Of a stretch of 64,000 bases of DNA, positions 2,879-64,000 are shown in pieces; position 1 is the stretch's first letter, and the number at the start of each line of letters is the position of its first letter. Source of the stretch: Seison nebaliae (taxonomy: Eukaryota). Under the pieces are notes generated by a model. It saw only the letters and a program-made list of their open reading frames with translations. It searched no databases and had not been told where the DNA came from. A program made the translations under genes and the position numbers. Where the stretch lies: assembly GCA_023231475.1 (NCBI GenBank), contig JALJEE010001986.1:1-64000 (forward strand), in the 5' to 3' direction.

Positions 2879-5800
2879 TTATTTACTTCGCGCACGTCTC
2901 GTCGTTGATTTATTTTGTAATTCATCAATGATTTCTTCAATTCCTAATGACGTACTACGTCGCTTAAATTTCTAAAAAAAATTTTGATTGAATAATTTTA
3001 ATTTCTACTAATATTTGTCTAACTTTAATTTTGCGAGCAGCTCTACCTCCGCAAATAATGAAATATGATTTCTTCAAATTAATTATTTCTTCTTTCTGTA
3101 ACTCGAAAAGTTTTTTCAAATCCACAATTCGAGAATTCAATTGATGATTACCTTCATTTAAATTACATCATATTAAATATCATTTAAATTGAGAGAAAAC
3201 CTCGGAAGAGATGATAAGCCTCGATGAATTTTTCAACTGTATTCAATCCACCTATTTGTCCTATTCCTATTTCATTTTGTAAGTCATGAATCTTACGTCG
3301 AGTAATCTTTAACTCCTCACGTATTTTTGTCATTTCATGCAACAATGTTACGTTTTCCTTTTCGAATGATAATTATGTGAATAATTGTTAAAATGTTTCA
3401 GACGTTTCTAACCGACATGACACGGAGAGCATCAACTTTTTGTAACTCTTGATTCTGTTGGAAATTTATCTTCAAATTTGCTAACGTGCCTTCCAAATAA
3501 TGTCGTTTTCGATGATATTCCGAATGTGAGTCGTCCATTACAAGTCTTAACGTTGTCTGATTAATTAATAAATAAAAAGAAATAAAAATTTCGACAAGTT
3601 TTATATTGGAAACTTTTTGATCGTCTAGATATTTCTTAAATAAACCAATGATACCTTTTCGCAGTTCTTTGGGAGAATTCATATGTTTCTCCAATTCCCA
3701 AATATCTGTTTGTAGCTGAGTATAAATTGTCTTAATTTGTCTTATCTAAAAAGAAGAAATAAAATGAAAATTAATTGGGAAATAATGGGAAAATGAACAG
3801 TATCTGTTTCTTCTTCGAATTGCTTCTCACAAGCACGAACTTTACTACGTAATTCTGATGATAAAAATTGTGATTTTCGTTTTCTATGATGCATGTCCAC
3901 TAATTCTTGTTCCATCTATTAAAAAAAATAAAATTTTTTAATTTATCCAAACAATTCTAATCTAAGTTAAACTTTTAAGGTTTGCATATTTACGTCTCGT
4001 AATTCAGCCGCTTTCGGTTCGAATTGTTCTTGCAATTCATTGATCTTGAATTCCAAAACGAACTTGAATTTTTCTAATTCTTGATTCGTTTTTTTTAGTT
4101 CGAATGATCGTTTTTCCTGGAAGTTGAACGACTGAATTGTTAAACTAAATAAATAGAAACTTTATCTGCAATCAACTCCTCTCGATCAGTAATCTCATTC
4201 TTCAAATGTTCAACAATCGATTGCATATCTCTCAATGTTTCATGAACTTTCTTGTTTTCCATTTCGACGCCAAGAGCTAATTCTTCCGATTGTTTCACCA
4301 TTGCATCCAATGTCACATATTTCTGTTGCATGATTGCCATTTCATTTTTGTATTGAACATTCTTATCTCGTTCGATCTTCAATTTCTCTTCAAGATCGGT
4401 CTTCAATCCCAAAATCTCCAATTCAGCATCTTGTTCAATGTCATGAATACTTACCGCTGTATTTTCGATAACTTGAAGTTGAGCCTTTTTTATCTAATTC
4501 ATATCGATAAAATTAATGAAAGATTATTATTAGATATTATATCAACACAAATGTTCCATATTAAACTTTGTCAACTTTCCCATAAAGTTGTTTGTTTGAA
4601 ATTTTTATCTGTTGTTTAATTGCTTTCAATTTTTCATCTTTCTCACTGTCATATTGACCAACTTGACTCTTCATACGACGAAGTAATTCATTGAAATCTT
4701 CTTCCGTTTTTCCATAACGATCCTTTTCGTATTTCATACTATATTCATGTTGAAATTTTACCTTTTCAGCCTCGTCGTTCGCTTGTTTATCTAACAATTC
4801 CATCAATCCCGCATGTTCCTCTTTCTGTCGTTCATCTTCTGCTATTAGATCTTGTACCGTATCCAATAACTTCTCCACTTGTTTATCGAATAATTTAAAT
4901 GTAGAATAAGTTTTAGTATGGAACATATCATCCTTTTTCCGTAACTGATTTCGAAAGTCTTGAGTCAAATGAACAATTTGATTTCTCAGTCTGTCCGTTT
5001 CAAATTTCATCTCTTCTAATTGAGATACGCCACAAATCAAATTATTGACAGTTGGCACATTAACTACCTGTTTAGCTCGGCCTTTCACCGTCAACGACCA
5101 AATTGCAATAGTTAAATCGGTACCGACCGATATTATATGACTGACGTCTTGAGTGAACTTGATTTTTCTGACATCGCCACTATGTGCGAGATAACTGTCA
5201 AATTCGAATTTTGTAGTAACTGGACTCTTGATAATTATTATGTTGCCTGATGTCGATCCTCCACAAATGTATTCTATCGCATTATTTGATGGTGGTACTA
5301 ATGAATACATAACATCAAGACTTGACATATATGTATGGAAATCATTTGTCTCATTGAATGGATGTTCAAATTTCAATTGATTATCTTGATAAAATTTTAA
5401 CTTCGCATCTTCACATGATAACATAATCAGATCGGAATTCTTTAAAAAACGAACAGCGGGACATGAGGTCAATCGACTTACATGTAACAGAATTACTTCA
5501 CTAGTAGCCCATCTCCAAGCATGAACTGATCCGTCTGAACCACTACAAGCAATAATCGTATCATCATAATTGAATGCTAAATCATTAATCTTAAATGAAA
5601 TTATGAAATATCAAAAATTAATCGATATTAATATAACTTTTCCTAAATTTTCTTGGATATAGGCTAATGGACAATAATCAACAGTCGAGGTGATTTGAAC
5701 GGCATTTGCTGCTGCTGAAGCAATTAGATGACCGCCATTACTAAATCGACACTGAATTGAGAAAGGAATTGAGATTATTGGAAAATAAATAAAAGTTTGT

Positions 5801-7526
5801 GTAATAAACTATAGTAATACTACGTATCGGGAAATATGCCACATTCGAAAGTGAATTGAAGCGAATACTGTATAAGAATAATCCTGACATTAATGCCACT
5901 CCAACGAAAAAGGCGAGAGGATGTAGACAACAACTATGTATATCTTCAACGAATTCTTGAGATAACACAACTTTTCTGCAAAGGAAAATTTTCTTTTATT
6001 TTTAATATTAGAAATAATAACTTTGTTTCGTAGTCCCATAATTTCAAAACTTTGTCACCTCCAACAGTAGCAAATAAGGGACGATGTTTACAAACGTCTA
6101 AATCATTTATTGATTTCACATGAGCTTGCTGTCCTAACGATGTCATCGACGTATACATCTAAAGAATTATGAATTATAATGAATCTATATATATTCGAGA
6201 GTAAAAATTCGAAACGTTCTGTTCAACTTGAGCGAACGGTAAGTAAAACATAGTTCCTTCTTCAGTGAAAGCAATTATATAATCCTCTGCTGGACTAACA
6301 GCAACACATTGGATAATGGTTGGAGCGATATCTTTGTGGAATTCCGATTCGGTTTCATGAATTTCAAATTCAGGTTCTGGAAACAATTGTTTCGAATGGT
6401 CACCGTCAGTTGTGTGACTTTGAGTTCCATGAGAAAAAACATCGTCGTTATTATTTCCTTTGCTTTTCCCTTTTCTCGCATTCTCGCCTGGTATGCGAGA
6501 AGCTCCAATTTGTTGATAACCATCAGGGACATTCTGGTCAGGCATAAAATGGAGAAGGATACTACTACTATAACCAACAACGAATCCTCGTGAATGTGAA
6601 CAAATGGCAGTGGCCACCGGAATTGTGACATTGGGAGTAAGTAAAGTAGCATACAATTTGTCATTTTCATCTTCTAAATCAGTTTTAGTGTTAAATCCTC
6701 GTTTTGATGTTTGCGTACCAATAAGCGATTTAACATCGATCATATACAGAATGTCTCGATTAGCAATGATGCAGATAGTTCCTATATTCGTACCGACTGC
6801 CATTTTATCATCATCAATCCAACAATGAACGGTATATGAGAATATGGGTGGGAGACCTTCAATCGCTTTATCATTAATATTCGTATTAAGTTTATAAGAC
6901 TGATCAACTAGCTTCCATACTCTTAACACTTTATATCCGGTCAAACCGATATAATTCGAAGCTAATTTAGAGAATGAGATCTGCCAAAGTGGAACATTTC
7001 CTATCAGATTCGCATTCGCTGGAAATTCTCCCGTCTTCCTCTGCTTATCCCACAACCAAATGATAATAGTGTAATCGCTAAGTAAACTTACTATACGTTT
7101 CCCATCCACACTAAATTGAGCGCTGATATATTGTAAGCGATTGTAACGTGTACCCATTAATGGTAGAGATTTCTTCTTTTCCCAATTCTGCATTTGAGTA
7201 AAATCCTCACACTGCAAGATGTAGCAACAAGGATTCATATTATCATTATAACCGAACAGCGCTAAATTCGATATCTTCTTCGAATAGTTGGATGTTAATA
7301 GATGAACGATTGCTAATTCGGTTATTGGAATATGTGAAATTTGAATGGAACTATCAATATCCATAATAACTACCATTCGTCCAGCTACGTAGGCTAATGT
7401 TTGCGGGTCAGCAAAATGTAGAGCATAAACTCCTAAACGTGAACAAGCGCCATACATCGCCTCCATTCTACATTCAACCCAACTATTCCGATTATCATAT
7501 TCTATTCGTTTCACCACCGGTTCCAT
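2879..7526 (-). CDS. CFAP57: Cilia- and flagella-associated protein 57 (WDR65): WD40 repeats plus coiled coil, ~12 short introns
   Basis: Spliced product contains [68 protein letters not shown] and [16 protein letters not shown] at 7526, TAA at 2879-2881. Confidence 0.9.
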
Positions 7527-62803: not shown

Positions 62804-64000
62804 ATGGATTCATTAAAGAGTTGGATGACATGGTTCTGGACATACATTTGGATCATTTGGCTCATATTAGTATTGGCTCTATTGTATTTCTTAAGAATTC
62901 CACTCAAAATTGGAGAGAGTGTCGGATTGAGTTCATTCTTTTCTTACATCTTCTTTCATTCATCTGTTTGGGAATAGCTTCCACCTTCTTTTCAGGATTA
63001 ACTCCAAACTTTTATGTAGCTCTCACTGGAACTAGTTCATTACTTTCCGGTTCTTTTCTAGTTAAGTTTCCCTTTAAAATGTTCTTAATTTCTTTTTCAT
63101 TTCACATTCGTTTCTCTTCTTCCATTTTCCCATTTAAGGTTTTCGAGTGGTGGTATTTCAAACGATATGGTACGTCATTCATCGAAAACTTCTCAAGTAC
63201 TTATCTAAATTGGATTCTTGAATTTCCGGATAGTCAATCTCAAAGTTTGAATGATAACGATGACGTTAACAATAATCAGAATAGCATCGAAAATCATTCT
63301 CAAATATATAGTGATAATATAGAGAATATGGGAGAGATGCAGAATAATAATAATAATAATCAACATAATCGTCAACATATTTCTAATCGAACTCATAATC
63401 ATTCTCATCATTCACATCATCATACTCATCATCGGAATCAACGAAATCGATTAAGAGCGGCTGATAGAGATCATCAATATGAGGCATATTCAGATGATGA
63501 AATTAGTGTCACTTCGGATGATAGTGATGCCGATATCTTCCCTAACAGTAGTACTAACAATTGTTCGAATGAATGTCGAGTGTGGAAGAATCCTCTCAGT
63601 CTATTCCGTGGACCAGAATATTATAAATACGATTTGGAAATGGAACGAATGAGTCTCTCCTCTCATGACATCATGCTCACCTCACAAGATCAACAGACAT
63701 TCTTCACCGTTTCCATACAAGATACAGCTTGTTTAACTTGTAACGAAGAATTGAATTCTCGAGCTAGAGATGAATTTAGTTTAATTTTCAATCATTTTCA
63801 AATGATTCATTTTGAATTAATTTATTTCGATTAATTTTCAATAGTGATGCAACGAGCATGGAGAGAGAAGAATAGAACGGAAAGAATCCGTTACGCTAAA
63901 GAAGCAATAAAATTTAATGAAAATTGTACAACAGCACTCATTCTGTTGGCAGAAGAAGAATCGACAACGATAAGTGAAGTTTAAATGAATTTCATTATAT
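62804..64000 (+). CDS. ST7: Suppressor of tumorigenicity 7, 5' part (runs off the window)
   Basis: WFWTYIW, LTPNFYVALTGTSSLLSG, FEWWYFKRYGTSFIE, ECRVWKNPLSLFRG, QDQQTFFT, MQRAWRE and LLAEEESTTI. Confidence 0.95.

Follow-up and report, generated by a model that had tools for sequence, protein, structure and literature searches.

The question raised by this locus is how the 5′ splice site is written in one animal lineage; more generally, which molecule fixes each letter of the donor, and how the signal of thousands of introns changes, are open questions. The locus is a 64-kb stretch of the Seison nebaliae genome (contig JALJEE010001986.1, positions 1 to 64,000; hereafter the window). Animal U2-type introns follow the donor consensus AG|GTRAGT, with a purine at +3 and G at -1 and +5. 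In the window, T was found at +3 in 66 of 70 distinct donors, the remainder being three GTA and one GTG, with GTC in 0/70; purines at +3 (4/70), G at -1 (15/70) and G at +5 (16/70) are all in the minority. The GTT donor of this animal is a real and apparently undescribed variant of the donor used by the major spliceosome, and the splicing machinery has likely switched the letter that it reads at +3.

The donors were obtained by mapping 11 NCBI-annotated SNEBB proteins of eight genes letter for letter onto the window; the evidence base is one window, public annotation and homology, and all donors are predicted junctions derived from DNA. Two sets were used, a first one of 57 short introns (55 GTT) and a later one of 70 distinct resolved donors. 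The sequencing runs X1 and X2 are of genomic DNA, their contigs being continuous through the introns. The genes are the following:

2879..7526, minus strand: CFAP57 gene SNEBB_003558, with 12 introns of 44-73 nt, all GTT, by exact mapping of P0001.
7769..9839, minus strand: CLPB (mitochondrial disaggregase) gene SNEBB_003559, with nine introns, all GTT in the isoform of 538 amino acids.
21102..29002, minus strand: cyclic-nucleotide-binding channel-like gene, part of SNEBB_003563, with eight introns, all GTT; the donor-blind model described below equals annotation P0125.
31042..32512, plus strand: ODF3-like gene SNEBB_003564, with six GTT donors and the exception CAA|GTACTG at 31657.
37381..40951, minus strand: unnamed gene SNEBB_003565 of 1022 amino acids, with 10 introns, all GTT.
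41939..43720, minus strand: GTF2H4 (p52) gene SNEBB_003566, with seven GTT donors and the exception TCG|GTGAGT at 43284.
51198..61607, minus strand: hyccin (FAM126) gene SNEBB_003572, with two isoforms and both short and long introns.
62804..64000, plus strand: 5′ part of ST7 gene SNEBB_003573, with three complete GTT introns and a fourth GTT donor at 63979, the intron of which exits the window.

By gene, GTT accounts for 12/12 donors in CFAP57, 9/9 in CLPB (538-amino-acid isoform), 10/10 in the channel model, 6/7 in the ODF3-like gene, 10/10 in the unnamed gene, 7/8 in GTF2H4, 9/11 in hyccin over two isoforms and 3/3 in ST7. The set of 70 includes a 509-nt intron, perhaps mispredicted, through which the channel is fused to a separate-looking open reading frame (ORF); the count becomes 66/71 once a doubtful 40-nt GTAAAT intron of a second CLPB isoform (P0003) is included. 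The four exceptions are TCG|GTGAGT, GAG|GTAAGT, CAA|GTACTG and ATC|GTAAGA, the last belonging to an alternative hyccin isoform. An earlier note on this DNA, made from the letters alone, had described the 5′ splice sites as overwhelmingly GTT, and annotated proteins, homologues and a donor-blind model now agree on it; its twelve CFAP57 donors were reproduced letter for letter, each with a single GT..AG placement, its counts for CLPB (9/9), the channel (8/8) and GTF2H4 (7/8) were all recovered by the protein mapping, and the three exceptions that it named (GTGAGT at 43284, GTAAGT at 53539 and GTACTG at 31657) are real.

T follows GT at 40% of the GT sites of the window and at 40 of 71 non-donor GT sites inside introns (P(T|GT) = 0.56), the latter being the strictest control. 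Against it, 66/70 has a p of about 1e-12, and the 55/57 of the first set gives p = 6e-12; the earlier note had staked its claim on +3T exceeding the intronic background, and on this the claim survived. All 70 resolved introns have GT-AG termini, and homologue alignments support the restoration of the frame upon their removal. U12-type introns carry the donor RTATCCTT and a strong branch-point motif; no such donor occurs among the printed donors of the window, the U12 branch motif itself not having been scanned.

The earlier note had worried that its own picks were biased toward GTT, and a similar preference of the gene predictor among ambiguous donors would produce the pattern as an artefact. 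A few observations point that way: at least one annotated intron looks wrong (the 40-nt GTAAAT in CLPB), CLPB intron 4 scores slightly better with a GTC donor than with GTT (642.8 vs 639.4), although the annotated isoform later matched GTT, and intron 2 of a G-protein-coupled receptor (GPCR) can be read as GTA (61 nt) or GTT (52 nt). The worry was not borne out. A donor-blind Viterbi model was given only GT and AG, the composition of codons and introns and a prior on length, with the terms for composition and length trained on annotated-intron interiors. Of the 54 annotated donors in six genes it found 50, and GTT made up 49 of the 54 donors that it called; with a mild intron penalty it invents in-frame introns (44 predicted vs 35 annotated), and in hyccin it misplaces the annotated donor at 53392 and does not bridge the long introns. 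A CLPB profile built from 60 non-Seison proteins, with no donor score, ranked GTT first in 8/9 introns. Alignments to homologues of solved structure are gapless across five GTT junctions in GTF2H4 (human p52) and six in CFAP57 (mammalian CFAP57, alignment shown to residue 1098), and the largest CFAP57 exon is 100% identical to one database protein, SNEBB_003558. Because a frame-compatible non-GTT donor lay nearby in 20/57 introns, the GTT excess is not forced by the frame. An artefact of this kind is thus hardly credible.

The two annotated CLPB isoforms differ at 9207-9320 (minus strand), where one removes the 40-nt GTAAAT "intron" and the other fits homology; the removal takes out residues that have aligned counterparts in other animals and costs the homologue score 24 bits, and this intron is probably a prediction error, as judged from the alignments. 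At 28849-29974 (minus strand) the annotation joins a small ORF to the channel gene through the 509-nt intron, which bypasses a stop codon together with the beginning of the channel ORF; the two are probably separate genes. The GPCR gene, which has a Pfam 7tm_1 match below the cut-off, contributes one more GTT donor, outside the count of 70:

19629..19684, plus strand: GPCR intron, donor TCG|GTTTCA, from the donor-blind model; its removal restores the DRY motif.

Outside GTT, little of a donor signal is left in the short introns, which measure 37-78 nt in the first set of 57, with a median of 51. The information content is 0.88 bits at +3 and 0.43 at -1, falling to 0.05, 0.10 and 0.01 at +4, +5 and +6, so that the signal amounts to aaA|GTT only. 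On the exon side, A is enriched at -1 (39/57 against 19.6 expected, phase-matched), at -2 (32 vs 20.3) and at -3 (28 vs 20.0), while G at -1 is not (10/57 against 11.1 expected), in line with the earlier note, by which the -1 base is often A rather than G. Among -1A donors the -2 base is A in 23/38 and C in 4/38, and +5G is rarer after exonic AA (1/23 vs 8/32, p 0.06). Acceptors read HAG, with A more often as the next base (31 vs 20). The tested U2-type branch-point motifs showed no enrichment in the 57 introns. In 25.6 kb of coding sequence GTRAGT is not avoided (8 seen vs 7.1 expected); GGTT is depleted there (50 vs 65, z -3.5, on the sense strand only), a weak signal as one of 256 4-mers, and an apparent depletion of exonic AAGTT was lost under a junction-preserving shuffle (z from -2.3 to -0.4).

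Such an anatomy may recall an unchanged machinery, in which short T-rich introns would be located by length and composition, the +3T arising from AT-biased decay or from a mobile-element origin. Intron interiors are indeed 47% T, T follows 56% of their non-donor GT, +4 to +6 hardly differ from background and the branch-point motifs tested show no enrichment. However, 66/70 stands against 0.56 (p 1e-12); A makes up 33% of the interiors and yet occurs at +3 in only 3/70; and +3T is found in long introns too. Nor do the introns look mobile: the 57 have no mutual sequence similarity and no terminal inverted repeats above shuffles, and the CLPB positions appear, on indirect evidence, common to other animals; an introner (transposon-derived) origin was rejected. 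In a comparison with 117 other CLPB proteins, 9/9 CLPB junctions fall within one residue of the end of a long indel, where 40% of random positions do so. This indirect test gives p 2e-4, with the reservation that these sequences are related; it suggests that the CLPB introns are ancestral and that old introns were later converted to GTT donors. An unchanged machinery, already largely refuted by these observations, is therefore very improbable.

The long introns of hyccin keep the standard register. Three of them, first read from the sequence and then found with identical junctions in the annotation, have donors of the form G|GTTNGT, that is, the standard consensus with +3 alone switched; a short intron of the same gene has a fully standard donor:

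56881..61409, minus strand: hyccin intron of 4529 nt, donor GAG|GTTCGT (annotation P0124/P0126; outside the human hyccin alignment).
54349..56643, minus strand: hyccin intron of 2295 nt, donor CCG|GTTAGT (human hyccin spans the junction, with a 2-residue gap beside it).
53883..54300, minus strand: hyccin intron of 418 nt, donor TTG|GTTAGT (gapless alignment to human hyccin).
53492..53539, minus strand: hyccin intron of 48 nt, donor GAG|GTAAGT (annotation and human hyccin alignment).

The reading of donors thus stays in the normal register, with an altered preference at +3. The combination of -1G with +5G and +6T is present in 3/5 long and 0/61 short GTT introns (Fisher p 2e-4, post hoc), and 8 of 10 donors with +5G and +6T have +3T; strong donors bring back the standard consensus everywhere save +3. 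Two claims of the earlier note are hence only partly sustained: the lack of a consensus at +4 to +6 holds for short introns and fails for long ones, which carry +5G and +6T; and intron length contributes to donor choice, short introns having only A|GTT and long ones -1G, +5G and +6T, but alone it cannot explain the exclusion of A at +3. In the same gene, at 51659-52159 (minus strand), the annotation has two alternative donors with a shared acceptor, AAG|GTTATC (501 nt) and ATC|GTAAGA (195 nt), which sit within a long, low-complexity C-terminal extension.

As to the molecule responsible, standard U1 small nuclear RNA (snRNA) pairs with A or G at +3 at least as well as with U, and since it reads GTA and GTG no worse than GTT, it does not by itself explain their exclusion. 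With standard machinery and AT-rich introns GTA should be common; it is seen in 3/70, and something thus selects against GTA in the normal register. Our favoured explanation, tentative and somewhat short of an even chance, is a U1 whose sixth base is A (5′ end ACUAAC), which would pair with +3U in the ordinary register; the simplest change would be an A opposite +3, and for U1 position 6 there is a precedent in Entamoeba. The earlier note had suggested this very end: it complements the CCG|GTTAGT and TTG|GTTAGT donors in the normal register with a gain of about 4 kcal/mol, but the only end found was the standard one. For the five long donors, duplex energies computed with no pseudouridine terms are -5.2/-7.0/-5.2/-4.1/+0.7 kcal/mol with standard U1 and -6.1/-10.9/-9.1/-6.6/+0.2 kcal/mol with A6 U1, the four -1G donors being 0.9 to 3.9 kcal/mol better with the latter. 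With A6 U1 the two GTRAGT exceptions still come to -5.2 and -7.4 kcal/mol, and such rare donors would persist by matching at every other position, or almost every one. The toleration of GTRAGT in coding sequence beside the weak depletion of GGTT, and the lower share of +5G after AA, also speak for this U1. Short, T-rich introns (median 51 nt) would be found by intron definition, the rest of their donor having decayed, while the exonic A's at -1 to -3 could pair with U5 loop 1 uridines, a contact that would suit all live models, as would a large role for short length in locating the intron; that these uridines suit exonic A's is indicated in the part of PMC8283771 available. A double U1 change (positions 6 and 9, reading AA|GUU) was tried as well and rejected: it is the best for short introns (mean -3.3 kcal/mol) and worse than the single change for the four -1G long donors.

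Several observations weigh against a U1 with A at position 6, beginning with its base of support, which is one window with eight genes, from DNA only. The intron side of short introns shows no surplus of U1 pairing in any register (z 1.2-1.4), and CG precedes 6/9 GTT donors with -1G against 1.7 expected, which this U1 does not predict. Moreover, when the contigs of four sequencing runs (two samples) were aligned to a central animal U1 gene used as probe (L032, Rfam 159 bits), each run yielded one U1 contig, with 80/91 core letters alike and the standard 5′ end ATACTTACCTG; no variant U1 was seen in the four runs by this alignment. A likeness of at least 80% to the probe core is reached by 17/21 animal-like U1 genes and 2/37 others, and consequently only an unusually diverged Seison U1 would be missed. 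Finally, none of 59 distinct U1-like genes (123 loci, in the 6 of 64 metagenome parts scanned) has A at position 6.

The standard contig counts against a rewritten U1, although not decisively. Its depth is 5.4 in X1, where the window has about 14, and 15.2 in X2, where the window has about 28, that is, 0.4-0.5 of window depth; further contigs at depth 16-17 are present in X2, and changes in the stems of the U1 contig look compensatory by eye. It may come from a Seison locus at half depth, or else from the host or some further organism that has the gene in many copies; if Seison has a U1 with A6, the contig would be either an extra copy or a foreign sequence that the sample contains. Seison, a marine rotifer, is epizoic on the crustacean Nebalia, and two divergent Seison lineages are possible within pooled animals, according to the available text of PMC8351084. 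At 8931-9038, in a CLPB exon, a 151-base X2 contig of depth 2 matches with 10 differences, those listed being mostly towards G/C; its source is possibly a second lineage within the sample. Rfam recognised as U1 none of eleven metagenome loci with variant-looking U1 ends, and likewise found no spliceosomal RNA in the window. On the metagenome contig L004:274-838, a U1 gene and a 5S rRNA gene share a strand and are some 340 bases apart.

The standard U1 end is what would be expected if U1 is unchanged and tolerates +3U through a U-pseudouridine pair, +3U being enforced at the hand-over to U5/U6, whether by the base of the U6 ACAGAGA box facing +3 (a G-U wobble or a G-to-A change) or by an altered U1C, LUC7, SNRNP27 or PRP8. 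The U6 ACAGAGA box is far more conserved than the U1 end, which counts against such a scheme; so does the absence of GTC (0/70), as a G facing +3 should admit C, and the U1 contig, at 5.4 against about 14 in X1, may be foreign. In its favour are the standard end in 4/4 runs, the compensatory-looking stem changes and the depth of 15.2 against about 28 in X2. The exonic A's and the see-saw with +5G would fit selection by U5 and U6 (PMC11732430, PMC8283771), a +4U-pseudouridine contact was shown in human sites (PMC4856993), and commitment is placed at the transfer to U6 (PMC11732430), as far as the parts of these papers at hand go. Several lineages altered their donors with no U1 change; those, however, altered +4, and +3U dominance with standard U1 was not found in the literature searched. 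Enforcement at the hand-over is, all considered, possible but rather unlikely. Less probable still, we consider it unlikely that the standard U1 was kept while the U6 ACAGAGA box or a protein pocket was recoded to demand +3U, old introns being converted genome-wide; if true, an RNA motif that is among the most conserved in eukaryotes would have changed.

Standard U1 might also read these donors in a register shifted by +1, pairing -1A with U10, +1G with C9 and +3U with A7. Shifted registers at atypical human donors were reportedly worked on by Roca and Krainer in 2009, as cited in PMC4856993. Such a register fits the standard U1 found in the runs and predicts a -1 purine and +3U jointly (exon-side z 4.9); the CG|GTT found in 6/9 -1G donors fits a pair of -2C with G11 (post hoc), and ST7 has one CTA|GTTAAGT donor. 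It also predicts +6G and +7T, yet +6G is at background level (4/55 overall) and absent from the long introns (0/5), which use +5G and +6T; -1A donors carry A at -2 and not C (23 vs 4 of 38), and the loss of GTA and GTG finds no reason in it. The shifted consensus (+4A, +5A, +6G and +7T, with -2C) is thus not seen, -2C occurring in 12/55 donors against a background of 17%. The finding of the long hyccin introns demoted this reading, which is now distinctly doubtful. The shifted and bulged registers of the atypical human donors in PMC4856993 (Tan et al. 2016), in the portion available, resemble Seison in having GTT after an exonic A and a standard U1, the only kind of U1 found here; they are rare and use shifted AAGU pairing, whereas in Seison GTT is the rule, +6G is not in surplus and long introns keep the normal register.

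Among known systems, the closest are amoebozoans, which supply the clear natural cases of donor and snRNA co-change in the literature searched, as far as its available text goes. Entamoeba has GUUUGU donors with a co-evolved U1 ACAAAC, and Physarum has both standard and modified U1 copies (Roy and Bowser, bioRxiv 10.1101/2022.06.08.495308, text available in part). The dominant pyrimidine at a normally purine donor position that marks the Entamoeba type is found here as well (+3T in 66/70); with Entamoeba, Mastigamoeba and Physarum, Seison shares a genome-scale shift from purine to U at +3 in GT-AG introns, and with the Entamoeba type the normal register with +5G and +6U in strong sites. From what is accessible on it, Entamoeba is intron-poor, with a rigid donor of six to seven letters (88-90% GUUUGU), whereas Seison, an animal, has 7-12 introns in several of its genes and a donor in which only +3 is fixed, with +4 to +6 decayed in short introns and -1 shifted to A, and the only U1 found is a standard one. 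Major donors have been split into a U5-class AG|GU and a U6-class |GURAG (Parker et al. 2025, PMC11732430, accessible in part); Seison hints at the same see-saw between exon and intron, +5G being rarer after AA, but its exon class would be AA|GUU and its intron class GUUNGU. Another animal, the tunicate Fritillaria borealis (Soo et al. 2026), likewise has a U2-type spliceosome with changed donors, for which a change at the snRNA level was proposed; there, according to the accessible portion of PMC13326754, the GT-AG rule is broken and U2AF duplication and re-patterning of N6-methyladenosine (m6A) are described, while Seison keeps GT-AG in 70/70 introns and has +3 changed at old positions.

No description of the GTT-donor trait in Seison, rotifers or Syndermata was found in the literature searched, which covered few subscription journals, and a published logo may exist; no metazoan atypical donors with a compensatory U1 were found in it either. 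The parts available of PMC10125929, PMC3464624, PMC11347168 and PMC10599564 contain nothing on the +3 donor position in rotifers, and PMC10639083, also available in part, names Seison in its supplementary species list. Seison would offer, for the general question, an intron-rich animal with one letter swapped at seemingly ancestral introns and the register kept; splice models that learned from other animals will likely put the donors of its lineage in the wrong place.

Regarding the remaining content of the window, the family name ODF3-like is taken from the earlier note, the protein having no Pfam match; the 1022-amino-acid product of SNEBB_003565 has no Pfam match and no relative in two mixed-profile searches, and nothing in Pfam, PDB or Atlas matched single exons of hyccin. 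The small ORF fused to the channel carries what we take to be a CRIB-like motif, with no Pfam match. The stretch 11100-18600 is about 7.5 kb nearly devoid of coding signal in an otherwise dense genome; it holds several GTAAGT hexamers, and no gene was found in it. The channel-like protein, of about 2500 amino acids, has cyclic-nucleotide-binding matches, at least two in number, and two of its exons are very long (about 3.3 and 2.3 kb). Broken mobile elements occupy 1637-2656 (plus strand), 32790-34063 (plus strand) and 44081-45172 (minus strand), and comprise a DDE transposase (PF13843), a reverse transcriptase fragment (RVT_1) and an integrase fragment (rve, H2C2).

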